DNA of 64,000 nucleotides from the IMG/VR virus record IMGVR_UViG_3300032285_001531. One strand, 5' to 3'. Shown piece by piece: positions 2,614 through 62,616 of the stretch. The notes below the pieces were generated by a model, which did not search any database, was not told the origin of the DNA, and saw only the letters and a list, made by a program, of their open reading frames with translations. A program made the position numbers and the translations under genes. This DNA comes from a virus (lineage: Duplodnaviria; Caudoviricetes). Positions within the stretch are counted from its first letter, which is position 1. Every line of letters begins with the position of its first letter.

Positions 2614-2688
2614 ATACAGCTATTTATCGGATAAAAAGTTACTGGTTACGAGTTCCAGTGACACTCTATAAGCGTGTCCGATTTAAGT

Positions 2689-3399
2689 TTAATTCCAGTA
2701 CGTACTATTGTCTAGTTTGTTCCAGTATTCTATATTGTTACGATTTATAAAGTTTTTGATGAGGTACGCAGCCATTCCAAAATAGCCCATTTTCTTAAAT
2801 CTGCGTGAATCCTGTCCAAAGTAATGTTTGATGATTTTGAATTTTTTCGGACTATACATTCTGGATAGGAAATAATCTTCAGAGGTCGAGAACTTTTCAG
2901 GGAACCCACCAAATTCTTCAAACTTGTCTCTACGAGTGAGCATGAACGCACCCACAGCAAATGGGCTAAAATATTTTAGAACACTATTAACTAAATTAAA
3001 GATACTAAAGCCAATAGCTGTTCTCCAATCATCATCGTAACACATGATATTCAATCCAACTAAATCTAAGTTATTACTTTCAATTTCATTAACTGCATCT
3101 TGTATAACATATTTGCTGAAAAAACGGACATCAGCATCAATAAACAAAATATATGGAGTAGTAACTAATCTTGCTCCGTTGTTCTTAGCGACACTAACAG
3201 GACCACCATCTATGATTTCTATATTTAAAAAAGCACTATTGTCTTTTATAACTTGTCTGGTATTGTCTGTAGAACAATCAGCAATAATAATTCTAGTACC
3301 ACCTAGCTCCTGTAAGCGCAGGGAATCAATTAAATGATAAATGTAATTTTCTTCATTTTTGCAAGGAACTACAATTGTAATTTTTTCACTTAGTTTCAT
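2689..3399 (-). CDS. Family 2 glycosyltransferase (GT-A); likely start MKLSEK at 3399
   Basis: IVVPCKNE, IIADCSTD, LFIDAD (DxD), GAFML, EDY and DSRRF motifs; ATGA overlap with the upstream small gene. Confidence 0.88.
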   Translation of the reverse strand: MKLSEKITIVVPCKNEENYIYHLIDSLRLQELGGTRIIIADCSTDNTRQVIKDNSAFLNIEIIDGGPVSVAKNNGARLVTTPYILFIDADVRFFSKYVIQDAVNEIESNNLDLVGLNIMCYDDDWRTAIGFSIFNLVNSVLKYFSPFAVGAFMLTRRDKFEEFGGFPEKFSTSEDYFLSRMYSPKKFKIIKHYFGQDSRRFKKMGYFGMAAYLIKNFINRNNIEYWNKLDNSTYWN

Positions 3400-3569
3400 A
3401 TTTTTTTTACGCATTTACCTTCAATCTTAAATGATTCAAATTTTACCCAATAAGCCATGCTTCTTAGACTTTGTTCGCAACTTTGTTGATCTGGAAAATC
3501 CATTGTCATTTTCGCTGGAATGTCCTTTGGATCGTTTATGTGTACCGCTATCAATATCATCAACCACAT
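3396..3569 (-). CDS. 57-aa small two-Cys protein (MWLMILIAVHINDPKDIPAKMTMDFPDQQSCEQSLRSMAYWVKFESFKIEGKCVKKI); not in ORF track
   Basis: Translated by hand. SD CAGGAGA is 6 nt upstream. Its TGA overlaps the GT2 ATG (ATGA at 3399-3396). It overlaps the last 134 nt of the plcP ORF in another frame. Confidence 0.75.
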   Translation of the reverse strand: MWLMILIAVHINDPKDIPAKMTMDFPDQQSCEQSLRSMAYWVKFESFKIEGKCVKKI

Positions 3570-4320
3570 TATCTGTCTCCTGTGTCCAAGTTACAATCTC
3601 CCACTTACCATTGTGATGTTCTACAAGTGCAGTCATTGATTCAACCCAATCACCGTCGTTCATATAAACGACACCATCTACTTCTTTTATCTCTGCATGA
3701 TGTATATGACCACATATAACACCATCAAATCCTCGCTTCTTACAATACTGTGCTAAGTTCTTTTCAAACTGGAACATAAAGTCTATGGCTCGTTTGACTT
3801 TTCCTTTAAGATACTTAGAAAGGCTCCAATAACCAAAACCCATCCTATGACGGATCCAATTAAATCGAGTGTTGAGAGCAAGGACGAAATCATAGGCTTT
3901 ATCTCCTAATATTGAAAGCCAAGGTGCTAGTCTTGTGATTCCATCAAACAAGTCACCATGCACTACTAAGTAATGCTTACCATCTACACCTATATGTTCT
4001 ATTTGATTGGTAATCTCTAGCATACCAAATCCTAAACCATAATGCATAAAAGGTCTTAAGAACTCGTCATGGTTACCTGCTACGTATACAACTCGTGTAC
4101 CACGTTTGCTATGACCAAGTATTCTACGTATCACATTACTATGACTTTGTTTCCAGCGCCACTTGTTTTGTTTAATCTTCCAAGCATCAATGATGTCACC
4201 AACAAGGTATAATGTTTCGCAACTGTTATTCTTTAAGAAATTGTTTAGTGCTTCTGCTTTACAGTCTTTAGTACCTAAATGTACATCACTGATAAAAATA
4301 CTGCGATAAGTCTTATTCAT
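3436..4320 (-). CDS. plcP: PlcP-type Mn-dependent phospholipase C / LpxH-like metallophosphoesterase
   Basis: Calcineurin-like motifs SDVHLG, LVGDIID, GNHDE, HGDLFD and GHIHH. Also NDGDWVES and the WLSILGDKAY...FGYWSLS membrane insert typical of Pho-regulon PlcP proteins, which are often annotated UDP-2,3-diacylglucosamine hydrolase. Confidence 0.8.
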   Translation of the reverse strand: MNKTYRSIFISDVHLGTKDCKAEALNNFLKNNSCETLYLVGDIIDAWKIKQNKWRWKQSHSNVIRRILGHSKRGTRVVYVAGNHDEFLRPFMHYGLGFGMLEITNQIEHIGVDGKHYLVVHGDLFDGITRLAPWLSILGDKAYDFVLALNTRFNWIRHRMGFGYWSLSKYLKGKVKRAIDFMFQFEKNLAQYCKKRGFDGVICGHIHHAEIKEVDGVVYMNDGDWVESMTALVEHHNGKWEIVTWTQETDNVVDDIDSGTHKRSKGHSSENDNGFSRSTKLRTKSKKHGLLGKI

Positions 4321-4338
4321 GTTATTATCCTATATAAT

Positions 4339-4373
4339 TATTTAATAGGAATTGTGTGACAATAATATGACAA
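4339..4373 (-). promoter_or_regulatory. Pho box promoter of the plcP operon
   Basis: Minus strand TTGTCAT-ATTA-TTGTCAC (4373-4356), 11-bp periodic direct repeat matching the PhoB consensus CTGTCAT-N4-CTGTCAY; then 10 nt, then TTAAATA (4345-4339). Confidence 0.85.
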
Positions 4374-4380
4374 ACCGTAA

Positions 4381-4404
4381 AAAAAGGCACCTAAGTGCCT
4401 TTTT
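4381..4404. terminator. Rho-independent terminator after pstS-porin
   Basis: AAAAAGGCAC-CTAA-GTGCCTTTTT. Confidence 0.85.
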
Positions 4405-4422
4405 ATTTTGCTCTAAATTAGA

Positions 4423-5547
4423 TTAGAAGCGATGCTGAATGCCAACTGCAAATGCACGTTGACTTAAAGCACTGTCACCAAAGTTTGAGCCACCACCATC
4501 TGGTACCCAACGATCATAAACAGTAAATGGTGCTGCTGCGTTTGCATTGCGGTTAGCAACTACATAGTCAGCGAACACTTCTGTACGCTTGCTGAATGCA
4601 TAAACTGCACCAACTGCATACATCTTAACATCATCTTTACCTGCTGTTACTTGGTCTTGTACATTGTAGTAACCACCGTTAACACTTACACGATCGGTAA
4701 CTTTGTACTTCGCACCAGCAAACCAAGTACGTGCATCAGTCTTACCGTCAGCTTTCGATGAGCTTGCACGGAATGCTGTTAGTGTATTTGGATTGTTAGT
4801 GATAACATAACCAGCGTTAACTAGTAAAGCATCAGTAACATTATACTTTGCTGCAACTAAGTCGATCTTTTCATCAACGTTAGCATTGGTTAAACGAACT
4901 TCTTCGTGTGTATATGCTACTTCTACTGGACCTGCTGTATACTTACCACCAATGTTGTAGCTGCTCTTTGAAGTAGTATCATTTAACTGATTACCAAAAC
5001 TATAAGAACCATCAACAACTAAGCCACCAAAGCTTGGTGATGTATAGCGAACCATGTTATCAAAACGTGATACGCCTGAACCACTATAGAAACCAGCATA
5101 ACGTGCGATTGGCTTTAAGCCACCGAAGTTCCAGTTGCCACGTGAATCAAATTCATCAAGTACGTTGTACAAGAAGTTCTTGCCACGACCTAATTGAATC
5201 TGACCAAATGAACCAGCTAGGGCTACATTTGCTTCACGATCAAATACTGTGGTTGAACCTGCACCGCCACTGCCTGAATCTTTACCAATTCCGCCAGTAC
5301 GTAGACTCAAGTTACTTTCTAAGTTAAACTTAGCTGTCATACCGTCGCCTAGGTCTTCTACACCTTTGAAGCCTAACCGATTGCTGCTGTGTAACTGTTC
5401 ACCGAAACCAGTGAAGTCACTGTTAGCTGAAGTGAAACCACTACCGCTAACTACACCTGCACCCAACAAACCATAAACGGTAACGTTCTGTGCCTGTGCA
5501 ACACCAGCCATAAGCATAAGTGCTGCTACTAATTTTGTTACTTTCAT
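4423..5547 (-). CDS. Gram-negative trimeric porin (betaproteobacterial type)
   Basis: Signal peptide; NRLGFKGVEDLGDG, RFDNMVRYTSPSFGG; C-terminal GIQHRF with terminal Phe; ATGA coupling to pstS. Confidence 0.92.
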   Translation of the reverse strand: MKVTKLVAALMLMAGVAQAQNVTVYGLLGAGVVSGSGFTSANSDFTGFGEQLHSSNRLGFKGVEDLGDGMTAKFNLESNLSLRTGGIGKDSGSGGAGSTTVFDREANVALAGSFGQIQLGRGKNFLYNVLDEFDSRGNWNFGGLKPIARYAGFYSGSGVSRFDNMVRYTSPSFGGLVVDGSYSFGNQLNDTTSKSSYNIGGKYTAGPVEVAYTHEEVRLTNANVDEKIDLVAAKYNVTDALLVNAGYVITNNPNTLTAFRASSSKADGKTDARTWFAGAKYKVTDRVSVNGGYYNVQDQVTAGKDDVKMYAVGAVYAFSKRTEVFADYVVANRNANAAAPFTVYDRWVPDGGGSNFGDSALSQRAFAVGIQHRF

Positions 5548-6551
5548 TTTACTTCTCCTAAGTTAAATTTAGACCATACATTCTTAACTATGGCAACTAC
5601 CTCTTTTGGTAGAGGAACATAGTCAAGTTCTACAGCCATCTTTTCTCCATTGTTAAAAGACCAATTGAAAAATTTTAAAACAGCTAATCCGACCGCAGGA
5701 TCGGCTTGCTGCTTATGCATGATTATATACGATGCACCTGTAATGGGCCAAGCATTCTGGTTAGATTGGTCTGTTAATATAACAGCCATACCAGGTGAAT
5801 TAGCCCAATCAGCACCTATTGCTGCTGCTTTGAATGTATCGTCATCAGGTTGAATCCATTTGCCTGCTTTGTTCTTTACTTGAACATGTGCAATTTTATT
5901 CTTTTTGGCATATGCGTATTCTACATAGCCAATTGCACCTTGCAGTCTTTGTGCGTTTGCAGCAACACCTTCGTTACCTTTGCCGCCTACGCCTGTTGGC
6001 CATTTAACTGCTGTACCTGAACCAACCTTTTCTTTCCATTCAGGAACTGTTTTGCTTAACCAGTCAGTGAACAAAAATGTTGTGCCTGAACCATCAGCAC
6101 GATGTAGTACAGTGATATCCATATCAGGAAACTTAACTGTTGGGTTTAGTTCTTTGATACGAGGATCAGTCCACTTAGTGATTTTGCCTAAGTATATAGC
6201 AGCAATTACATCTGCTGTTAATTTTATTTGCCCAGGCTGAATGCCAACTAGATTTACAACTGGAACTACTCCACCGATAATAGCTGGGAATTGAACTAAA
6301 CCTTCTTTGTCTAGTTCTTCTTGTTTCAACGGCATATCACTTGCACCAAAATCTACTGTTTTAGCTTTGATTTGTTTAATACCACCACCTGAACCAATTG
6401 ATTGATAATTAAGACCTATCCCTGTTTGGGCTTTATATGCTTCTGCCCATTTAGAATAGATTGGATAGGGGAATGTTGCTCCTGCTCCTGTGATGTCTGC
6501 TGCAAATGACGTACTTGACAGAATTACAAGTACTGCGAATAATTTTTTCAC
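5544..6551 (-). CDS. pstS: Phosphate ABC transporter substrate-binding protein
   Basis: ITGAGATFPYP, YQSIGSGGG, VDFGASD, HRADGSGTT, GKGNEGV, WPITG; signal peptide; GTG start with AGGAG SD. Confidence 0.97.
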   Translation of the reverse strand: MKKLFAVLVILSSTSFAADITGAGATFPYPIYSKWAEAYKAQTGIGLNYQSIGSGGGIKQIKAKTVDFGASDMPLKQEELDKEGLVQFPAIIGGVVPVVNLVGIQPGQIKLTADVIAAIYLGKITKWTDPRIKELNPTVKFPDMDITVLHRADGSGTTFLFTDWLSKTVPEWKEKVGSGTAVKWPTGVGGKGNEGVAANAQRLQGAIGYVEYAYAKKNKIAHVQVKNKAGKWIQPDDDTFKAAAIGADWANSPGMAVILTDQSNQNAWPITGASYIIMHKQQADPAVGLAVLKFFNWSFNNGEKMAVELDYVPLPKEVVAIVKNVWSKFNLGEVK

Positions 6552-6593
6552 GTGTGTGTCTCCTTTTAAATATTCATGTATAATTGCACTAAA

Positions 6594-6628
6594 TATTTAA
6601 TGGCCGCAGTATGACAACTGTGTTACAA
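6594..6628 (-). promoter_or_regulatory. Pho box promoter of the pstS-porin operon
   Basis: Minus strand TTGTAAC-ACAG-TTGTCAT (6628-6611), then 10 nt, then TTAAATA (6600-6594). Confidence 0.82.
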
Positions 6629-29577: not shown

Positions 29578-29625
29578 AGTCTAATCTATTTCTACGGTTG
29601 TACATAACCGAATAAATAAGTCACT

Positions 29626-61386: not shown

Positions 61387-61479
61387 AGCTAAATACTATA
61401 GTTCACTCTCTATATGAGAGAGTTTATGCAGCACCCACTGCGTAGACCCTAGAACGGTCACTATAGGAGATTAAAACAA

Positions 61480-62616
61480 ATGGGACGTCCTTTAAAAATT
61501 ATCAAAGAAAACGCATCAGCAAGCCCAAGTGGAAAAATTGATGCAGGTTATCCAAATAACGGAACAACCAATAATGGATTCAGTAGAAGCTATCCAGGTA
61601 TTCTCGGCGGATCAATTCCAACATTTAACGATTCAGATCAAGTTGAAGCTAGTGTAGCTATTGAGAAAAAACAATATGGTACAATAGTTGCATCAACTGC
61701 ACATACTTGTGTAAGCGGTTTCGGCACTGCATTTAGCAGTGTACTGTCAGTAGGTAGTTCAGTTTATGCTGACGGTATTTCCGCTGCAATTGGAACAGTT
61801 AATACATTAAATGCAAATGCATCAGACACAGCAACAGCAACAACTGCATCAAATGATCGTATCACTGTAACAGCTAGTGCGCAGTTCGTAGTAGGCGGTT
61901 CGGTAACTGTTGCCGCAAATATTGGTAATCTAGTTGCAGGAACAGTGTATTATGTATATGATTTACCAACTTCAACAACATTACGTGTTAGTTCTACACC
62001 TGATCTAGCATCTATATTCCAGTTAGCTGATACTACATTACAATCAGTAGCAATAACTCAAACACAAACATTGACTTTAGACGCAGTTTCAACTGCATCA
62101 GTTACACGTAGTGTTTGGACCAGCTCTACTCCTGAAAGTAATAATGGTTATATTGTTCGTCAAAAGGGTAAGAGAAAATTCTTAGTTGTTGCTAAAACAG
62201 CAATTCAGGATGAGTTCATTGCTCAAGGCGGAAGCTACATGATCGTTTCAGTTAGTAATACCAACTGGGAAGCATTAGGAGCAGGAGCAGATGCAACAGC
62301 AGGTAAAATATTCACTGCAATTAAAGATGGAACCGGTCTAACAACTAATGGAACTGTTTACGCAGTTGGTGTGTGTTTATTATCAAACGTTGCTGATGGA
62401 AGTTTAACTAGAAATCAAATGAACTTAAATCTAAACAAGGCAAGTGGTCCAGATGTATTTGCATCTTCAGTATCAGATCATTTTGCAGTTGATTTCACTG
62501 ATAACGGAACTGATGAAAATGCAGGAACTAAGTTTATTGCAACACTAAATGGTGCAAGCAATACTCCAGATCCAGCAACAGGTCTCATCTCTGTCGCAGT
62601 AGATAACTATTGCTAA
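61480..62616 (+). CDS. Structural protein (MGRPLK family), 378 aa
   Basis: Late promoter at 61390; SD AGGAGA; high-expression codon usage. Confidence 0.7.
   Translation: MGRPLKIIKENASASPSGKIDAGYPNNGTTNNGFSRSYPGILGGSIPTFNDSDQVEASVAIEKKQYGTIVASTAHTCVSGFGTAFSSVLSVGSSVYADGISAAIGTVNTLNANASDTATATTASNDRITVTASAQFVVGGSVTVAANIGNLVAGTVYYVYDLPTSTTLRVSSTPDLASIFQLADTTLQSVAITQTQTLTLDAVSTASVTRSVWTSSTPESNNGYIVRQKGKRKFLVVAKTAIQDEFIAQGGSYMIVSVSNTNWEALGAGADATAGKIFTAIKDGTGLTTNGTVYAVGVCLLSNVADGSLTRNQMNLNLNKASGPDVFASSVSDHFAVDFTDNGTDENAGTKFIATLNGASNTPDPATGLISVAVDNYC

Follow-up and report, generated by a model that had tools for sequence, protein, structure and literature searches.

A candidate phosphate-starvation and lipid-remodeling gene module in a probable freshwater jumbo phage

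Phage phosphate-uptake genes are a textbook example of how viruses reprogram a starving host, and the locus described here raises the question of whether a phage may also draw on the phosphorus that is locked in the membrane of its host. In the IMG/VR virus record IMGVR_UViG_3300032285_001531, analyzed as a stretch of 64,000 nucleotides (the window), five genes lie in two minus-strand units: pstS with a porin gene, and the metallophosphoesterase gene plcP with a small open reading frame (orf57) and a glycosyltransferase gene (GT2). Our answer, to which we give a probability of roughly two in three, is that this module mines phosphorus from the host membrane and refills the membrane with glycolipid under the control of the host regulator PhoB; the same likelihood attaches to the view that the source is an uncultured jumbo phage from fresh water that belongs to the T4 superfamily and that the module is a phosphate-starvation gene set. 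We infer phospholipase activity in infected cells, the use of diacylglycerol (DAG) as the acceptor of GT2, dependence on PhoB, and a benefit to phage DNA synthesis. The two units are made up as follows.

5544..6551, minus strand: pstS; NCBIfam PstS equivalog NF008171, Pfam PBP_like_2
4423..5547, minus strand: Porin_4 porin gene; PF13609; its ATG overlaps the pstS stop codon as ATGA
4381-4404: intrinsic terminator hairpin (GGCAC/GTGCC) with a T-run, closing the pstS-porin unit
3436..4320, minus strand: plcP, metallophosphoesterase, predicted phospholipase C; PF00149
3396..3569, minus strand: orf57, open reading frame of 57 amino acids (aa), overlapping the 3' end of plcP and ATGA-coupled to the glycosyltransferase gene
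2689..3414, likely start 3399, minus strand: GT2 (GT-A) glycosyltransferase gene; PF00535

The genes that flank the two units are of phage type (tail assembly chaperone, tail-fiber-like proteins, terminase, SSB, and helicases), and related viral contigs share the synteny of the module, from which it follows that the locus belongs to a phage and is not a fragment of a host genome. The large terminase shares 51% identity with its counterpart in the Pseudomonas jumbo phage PA5oct, a 124-kb ENA contig has a gene order identical to that of the window with protein identities of 90 to 96%, and related contigs reach 350 to 367 kb. An earlier reading of the window, made from its letters only (the sequence-only reading), had proposed two phage-encoded minus-strand operons with ATGA coupling and a terminator, and every feature that it described is present where it had been placed.

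The phosphoesterase is 54% identical to PA3219 of Pseudomonas aeruginosa (243 aa, E 7e-94) and 47% identical to the orthologue of Sinorhizobium meliloti SMc00171 (245 aa, E 5e-86). The reference sequences came from two PLSDB records, in which the S. meliloti gene adjoins sinR/sinI on a 3.7-Mb record, a position that we take to be the place of SMc00171, and the P. aeruginosa gene lies in the arrangement PA3219-PA3218-cyaB. That arrangement is the context of the characterized pathway, and PA3219 and SMc00171 are themselves 46% identical to each other (PMC8528852). The PLSDB records NZ_CP042268.1 and CP090106.1 are labeled plasmids and seem to carry chromosomal loci; of the two records used, the 3.7-Mb S. 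meliloti replicon is labeled pSymB.

The source annotations name the same protein "UDP-2,3-diacylglucosamine pyrophosphatase LpxH," and "lpxH" is listed as a viral lipopolysaccharide (LPS) gene in virome papers that include a Lake Baikal viral metatranscriptome (PMC9611531, PMC10653327). The database name is accounted for by a shared calcineurin-like metallophosphoesterase fold (PF00149, 46.5 bits in the window protein) and distant sequence similarity, the match to solved LpxH being weak (E ~1e-5). Were the name correct, the phosphoesterase would be a lipid A enzyme and GT2 would modify LPS, a reading that we regard as highly improbable. In a maximum likelihood tree (IQ-TREE) of 75 proteins, true LpxH split off with 100/100 support on a long branch, the node at which the window protein, PA3219, and SMc00171 join comprised 66 rows without a single LpxH, and the 26 phage proteins formed one clade with 100/100 support, so that the window protein nests between two characterized PlcPs. 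Of 108 PlcP-like rows, 107 have the motif GNHD, both references among them, and the exception is a phage row with GNHE; all five LpxH rows have GNRD, and the alignment to solved LpxH likewise shows GNrD. Scores fall well below the LpxH equivalog cut-offs (NF003743, 50 bits versus 134; TIGR01854, 39 bits versus 190). Five bacterial genomes with homologues each hold a true LpxH, at 220 to 332 bits, and in four of the five the PlcP-like paralogue appears as a second, weak match to the LpxH model, at 38 to 55 bits.

The catalytic motifs DxH, GD, GNHD, HGD, and GHxH are invariant, as are D12, H14, G41, D42, G82-N83-H84-D85, H121, G204, H205, and H207 across 36 sequences; the conserved core ends near residue 248, and the nonconserved tail beyond it overlaps orf57. 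On sequence criteria, then, the phosphoesterase belongs to the PlcP family and is not LpxH, which we reject as its identity; the sequence-only reading had preferred PlcP, and the phylogeny against SMc00171 and true LpxH bears this out, with no clustering with LpxH. The closest "bacterial" PlcP, at 58% identity, lies on a 348-kb contig of a metagenome-assembled genome (JBCCBQ010000005.1), groups with the Pelagibacter phage Mosig, and is not followed by a GT4 glycosyltransferase gene; this contig could be a jumbo phage that was binned in error.

A survey of related phages for the same gene set recovered 81 related loci, which, with the window, gave 82 for comparison. The gene that follows plcP-orf57 encodes a GT4 glycosyltransferase of the Agt type in 39 of them and a GT2 enzyme, as in the window, in 35; in the remaining 8, mostly cut contigs, it is missing. 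The tight linkage of plcP to a glycosyltransferase that had been proposed is borne out. Identity between the phage GT4 and Agt1/PA3218 is 39% (334 aa, E 1e-79), and PA3218 expressed in Escherichia coli makes monoglucosyl-DAG (PMC8528852). Among the 80 nearest bacterial loci, some 50 have a GT4 gene directly after plcP, its product 36 to 43% identical to the phage GT4. The relatives' gene is a true Agt homologue, through which the phage module is linked to the known PlcP-Agt pathway. The marks of Agt (GT-B fold, GT4/Glycos_transf_1 domains, and homology to PA3218/PB7211_960) are found in the GT4 of the relatives and are absent from the GT2 of the window. On the plcP tree the type of glycosyltransferase switches at least 13 times, independently of promoter type, and this exchange makes GT2 an alternative cassette in the slot of Agt. 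It is also the best argument available for the use of DAG by GT2.

The GT2 gene probably starts at 3399, where its ATG overlaps the orf57 stop codon as ATGA and where the gene of the closest relative is called. The product scores 77 bits with PF00535 and 33 bits with PF13506 (Glyco_transf_21, cut-off 21.7); an AF2 model gives a standard GT-A fold (pLDDT 83), and a DxD motif (DAD; D93, D95) and an ED pair (E179, D180) are invariant. An Atlas search returned viral and bacterial GT2 clusters, none of them with a function. Two GT-A enzymes offer a comparison. The motifs of Pgt, of family GT21, are D, DxD, ED, and (Q/R)xxRW; GT2 has QDSRR at the position expected for the last. Cyanobacterial MgdA is a DAG glycosyltransferase of the GT2 family. 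In some marine bacteria Pgt adjoins plcP (PMC4796936). GT-A-fold DAG glycosyltransferases being already known, GT2 would constitute a new small family and not a new fold; the suggestion that it may be a new type of DAG glycosyltransferase would hold insofar as the partner of plcP is GT2 and not GT4, and fails insofar as Pgt and MgdA came before it with the same fold.

Between plcP and the glycosyltransferase gene stands orf57, which is open and conserved in 85 phage loci by tblastn and was not found by the same method in the bacterial loci, Mosig, or the freshwater Synechococcus phage S-SRM01. As the gene is uncalled in related contigs, we considered that it might be a spurious overlap, and this was overturned by codon-position analysis and conservation. 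In the window the plcP frame is open as far as residue 294, and in most relatives it meets stop codons past about residue 265; the orf57 frame is open in all relatives, and substitutions peak at its third codon positions. The 67 distinct versions, 40 to 80% identical to that of the window, keep M1, D16, P18, F25, C31, K43, F44, and C53, and a Shine-Dalgarno sequence, AGGAG, lies six bases 5' of the ATG. The gene is real, conserved, and confined to this phage clade. Its model is a beta-beta-alpha-beta fold (pLDDT 91.5) with two invariant cysteines, in which the hydrophobic start forms a core strand, so that no signal peptide is indicated; searches of Pfam, the PDB, and AFDB gave no family, fold, or structure match. 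Because it occurs with both types of glycosyltransferase, orf57 goes with plcP or with the whole pathway.

In the uptake unit, PstS exceeds its equivalog cut-offs (NF008171, 417 bits versus 339; TIGR00975, 395 versus 205) and begins with a hydrophobic leader indicative of a signal peptide; the porin scores 156.8 bits with PF13609 and has a signal peptide and a C-terminal Phe. The porin of the window matches Porin_4 and Porin_1 only, and the Porin_O_P domain of phosphate-selective OprO/P channels is absent from it; 18 relatives carry Porin_O_P at this position, so the Porin_4 form is a minority variant and most relatives have a phosphate-selective OprO/P-type porin. In 400 sampled Burkholderiales genomes the best match to the window porin was 42% identical. 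A permuted two-piece tmRNA of the betaproteobacterial type lies at 703-1019 on the plus strand (RF01850, 181 bits; RF04321, 134 bits), a type that hints at a betaproteobacterial host.

What would place both units under the phosphate-starvation response of the host is a set of sites in front of pstS and plcP.

6611..6627, minus strand: Pho-box-like direct repeat 5' of pstS, TGTAAC-N5-TGTCAT, 11-bp period
6594..6599, minus strand: TAAATA, -10-like element of the pstS unit, 11 nt past the box
4356..4372, minus strand: Pho box 5' of plcP, TGTCAT-N5-TGTCAC, exact pattern match
4339..4344, minus strand: TAAATA, -10-like element of the plcP unit, 11 nt past the box

With at most one mismatch, the pattern TGTCAY-N5-TGTCAY has two matches in the 64 kb of the window, 6627..6611 (pstS) and 4372..4356 (plcP). 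Since about two chance matches are expected per 64 kb, their number is no evidence, and it is position and conservation that count. A looser pattern, TGT[ACT]AY-N5-TGT[ACT]AY, was scanned over 927 kb of related phage loci: 49 of its 65 matches fall on the coding strand in the 160 nt that precede plcP or pstS, roughly half of the remaining 16 are these sites read on the opposite strand, and none was found upstream of 74 glycosyltransferase, 23 porin, and 46 BPL_N-like genes. TAAATA stands exactly 11 nt past the box in 43 of the 49 related boxes and at both sites in the window; a box precedes pstS in 13 of 23 related loci and plcP in 36 of 81. The arrangement, with two 7-bp TGTCA-type repeats at an 11-bp period some 10 bp upstream of the -10 element, replacing or overlapping a -35 element, is conserved and specific to plcP and pstS and is, to judge from base sequence and spacing, the geometry of PhoB-activated promoters. 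The consensus CTGTCATNNNNCTGTCAT has been used for the plcP promoter of P. aeruginosa (PMC8528852), and the window repeats fit the published form CTGTCAT-N4-CTGTCAT (PMC8528852). The proposal that each operon is led by a near-consensus Pho box is thus sustained, with the added point that the position is conserved in relatives. The second repeat of the plcP box also reads as a -35-like TTGTCA. In bacterial plcP loci the box anchor motif was matched in 1 of 35, the motif being ill suited to many of these high-GC loci. A second upstream element, TTGTGAC-N4-CCGTTAC, follows an A-run with the same 11-bp period and without TAAATA at 11 nt; seen upstream of pstS in five related loci and of plcP in one, it may serve relatives without the standard box as a Pho-type site of divergent sequence.

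We suggest that the module would work as follows. In a phosphate-starved host, phosphorylated PhoB would activate both units through the repeats that lie 11 nt before TAAATA. The first unit would add PstS, a periplasmic protein that binds phosphate with high affinity, and an outer membrane channel to the phosphate uptake path of the host, and in the second a PlcP, predicted to be of the Mn type, would cleave host glycerophospholipids to DAG and a phospho-head group, from which host phosphatases would release the phosphate. The glycosyltransferase would convert the DAG to a phosphorus-free glycolipid, with which the membrane would probably hold until lysis. A 350-kb genome contains about 7x10^5 phosphorus atoms and a small bacterium about 10^6 to 10^7 phospholipid molecules, so that, to an order of magnitude, membrane phosphorus could cover between a few and some tens of genome copies. 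The PlcP pathway of bacteria is itself a phosphate-starvation response (PMC4796936, PMC8528852).

A number of observations weigh against this mechanism, and they concern the glycosyltransferase and the promoters. No homologue of the window GT2 was present at the 80 nearest bacterial plcP loci, and a profile search of 400 genomes gave no close relative, with matches of at most 74 bits and none beside plcP. The fold is a generic GT-A, the best structural neighbors (CrtQ, TarS, and TarP) include enzymes that act on carotenoid, teichoic acid, and glycan acceptors, and the best NCBIfam match reaches 61 bits against a cut-off of 182. PlcP may thus be rightly identified and GT2 may act on a different acceptor, such as polyprenyl phosphate, a surface glycan, or another lipid, in which case DAG would be handled by a host Agt or a DAG kinase or would accumulate. 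We take this possibility seriously while holding it to be on the unlikely side, as GT2 occupies the exact position of the Agt-type GT4, after plcP-orf57 and translationally coupled, with the repeated exchange described above; it shares its Pho-box promoter with plcP, and CrtQ, its top structural neighbor, acts on a lipid.

On the side of the promoters, about half of the relatives have no recognizable box before plcP. TAAATA, often as ATAAATA, occurs 10 to 70 nt upstream of 24 of the 67 genes of the window, among them terminase, a tail-fiber gene, and a 3,148-aa open reading frame (for example, at positions 29613, 31177, 11475, and 51873), and must therefore be a general promoter core of the phage with nothing Pho-specific about it as a -10; it is probably a T4-like late-type core, and T4-type late promoters need only a -10 element. 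In phage S-PM2d, predicted Pho boxes can fail in binding assays, which makes such predictions unreliable without PhoB binding data (PMC10976474). It could follow that the window sites are ordinary TAAATA phage promoters, whose repeats bind a phage factor or nothing, and that expression keeps to the phage program regardless of the phosphate status of the host, given that TAAATA precedes many structural and replication genes. We think this distinctly unlikely: the repeats match CTGTCAT-N4-CTGTCAT (PMC8528852), exactly so at plcP, in some 930 kb of related sequence they are confined to pstS and plcP, and their PhoB-typical spacing is kept.

The loci without a box also bear on what the module is for, as does its location beside tail-fiber genes. 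Lipid renovation is reported to alter phage susceptibility in bacteria (PMC9804370, PMC9938194), and the envelope might be remodeled to exclude competitor phages, to give the membrane properties suited to the assembly of a large virion, or to time lysis, with phosphate as a by-product. This we find more doubtful still. Physical position and regulation tie the module to pstS and, in the related loci, also to a phosphate-selective porin; the same type of box heads pstS and plcP where one is present; and in bacteria the pathway answers phosphate starvation. The mining of membrane phosphorus under PhoB remains the reading that we prefer.

Immediately 3' of the second unit lie two further features that recur in the related loci.

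2637..2691, minus strand: two-hairpin element with a covarying stem, directly 3' of the GT2 stop codon
1972..2613, minus strand: BPL_N/class I glutamine-amidotransferase-like gene, a neighbor of the module in 46 of 81 loci

The two-hairpin element is 45 nt long and reads AATCGG-stem-GATAG-stem, followed by CTGGA-ACYCGTAA-CCAG. In helix 1, all five pairs show compensatory changes, and 97% of cells are paired versus 23 to 39% in slid controls. Searched with a covariance model, the window has a single copy, as do 49 of 83 related loci, in each case on the strand of the genes, and neither the bacterial loci nor Mosig gave a match; in IMG/VR, more than 120 stretches came up in an unbiased pattern scan, and of the 80 examined 73 hold the full element. 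Most copies begin at a stop codon or no more than a few bases from one, and the genes 5' of them are pstS (20), GT4 (8), an OprO/P porin (4), GT2 (2), and others that are outer-membrane-like or RNR-beta-like. In 29 of the 82 loci the element precedes plcP in place of a box, and a terminator follows 31 of 85 distinct copies. The mispairs (G-T 6 versus A-C 7) do not separate RNA structure from DNA structure, and Rfam holds no match to the element, which may be a 3'-end RNA element or a junction site between gene cassettes. Elsewhere in the window, the Rfam motif "freshwater-2" is matched at 61406-61482 on the plus strand (57.7 bits; gathering threshold, 49.9), just ahead of a 378-aa open reading frame.

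The BPL_N-like gene, which in the window stands after the two-hairpin element and a TAAATA, shows by eye a G-x-C-x-G nucleophile elbow and an HPE motif. A bolder proposition, which we think unlikely, joins two of the findings above: the clade-specific plcP-orf57-GT2 would be a new route to phosphorus-free glycolipid that bacteria are not known to use, with a small GT-A enzyme and a 57-aa helper, and the two-hairpin element at the 3' ends of pstS, porin, and glycosyltransferase genes would mark cassette boundaries as a signal of a new kind, be it RNA or a site of recombination, by which these jumbo phages shuffle metabolic genes derived from their hosts.

The gene is a common one: close relatives of the window PlcP are encoded on at least 597 IMG/VR contigs, and among the thousands of close metagenomic homologues the best 120 of 8,000 matches are 74 to 90% identical to it; S-SRM01 has a PlcP-family gene that is 36% identical. 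Virome pipelines that count this gene as "lpxH, lipopolysaccharide biosynthesis" therefore misread its ecological meaning. The sequence-only reading had supposed that a phage lipid-remodeling module was undescribed, and a search of the searchable literature turned up no paper on a phage PlcP or on such a module; a phage-borne route that frees phosphorus locked in the host membrane would be new to that literature. If our reading is correct, infected cells in phosphorus-poor lakes carry glycolipids made by viruses, and part of the lipid remodeling that is measured in bacteria is viral. Three leads for further work also emerge from the locus, namely GT2 as a candidate DAG glycosyltransferase of a new kind, orf57 as a small partner protein, and the conserved, structured two-hairpin element.

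Set beside known systems, the module resembles several in part. The nearest phage precedent in terms of regulation is that of cyanophage pstS and phoA, in which pstS is under the control of host PhoBR (Zeng and Chisholm 2012, as cited in PMC10976474): there, as here, a phage pstS would stand behind a host-type Pho box and the starvation signal of the host would raise the phosphate supply. The hosts differ, the accounts of those phages describe no lipid-remodeling genes or porins, and the box of the window is the proteobacterial TGTCA-type repeat whereas that of the cyanophages is of the cyanobacterial PyTTAAPyPy(T/A) type. The cultured Pelagibacter phage Mosig EXVC030M comes closer in gene content, with the PlcP-family gene Mosig_00120, whose product is 51% identical and groups with the phage clade in the tree, beside the pstS gene Mosig_00119; it is annotated as a "putative UDP-2,3-diacylglucosamine hydrolase," and the genome announcement makes no statement on it. 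What Mosig lacks, by comparison with the window, is a glycosyltransferase, an orf57 homologue, and the two-hairpin element.

Among the enzymes, LpxH shares with the window PlcP the calcineurin-like metallophosphoesterase fold and a distant sequence similarity, and it differs in having GNRD where the window protein has GNHD, in forming a separate clade, and in coexisting with PlcP-like proteins in the same bacterial genomes. Pgt, the processive DAG glycosyltransferase of Mesorhizobium and Agrobacterium, is like GT2 in its GT-A fold and its place after plcP, and GT2 also hits Glyco_transf_21; it is unlike GT2 in that the GT2-family score of the window protein (77 bits) exceeds its GT21 score and in that QDSRR stands where Pgt has a (Q/R)xxRW motif.

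The closest counterpart is the PlcP-Agt pathway of bacteria, for which our examples were P. aeruginosa PA3219/PA3218, S. meliloti SMc00171, Phaeobacter MED193_17359, and SAR11 HTCC7211 PB7211_983/960. The locus described here departs from it in being encoded by a phage, in the presence of orf57 between plcP and the glycosyltransferase gene, which is missing from the bacterial loci examined, in a partner that is a GT2 enzyme of 236 to 241 aa and not a GT4, in being joined to pstS and a porin, and in a -10 element that is the phage's own promoter core. It agrees with the bacterial pathway in the enzyme family, by identity (54% and 47%), GNHD motif, and nesting in the tree; in the succession of a Pho box, plcP, and a glycosyltransferase gene; and, in phage relatives, in the possession of an Agt homologue. 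The module is thus best read as a new phage version of the known bacterial PlcP-Agt pathway.

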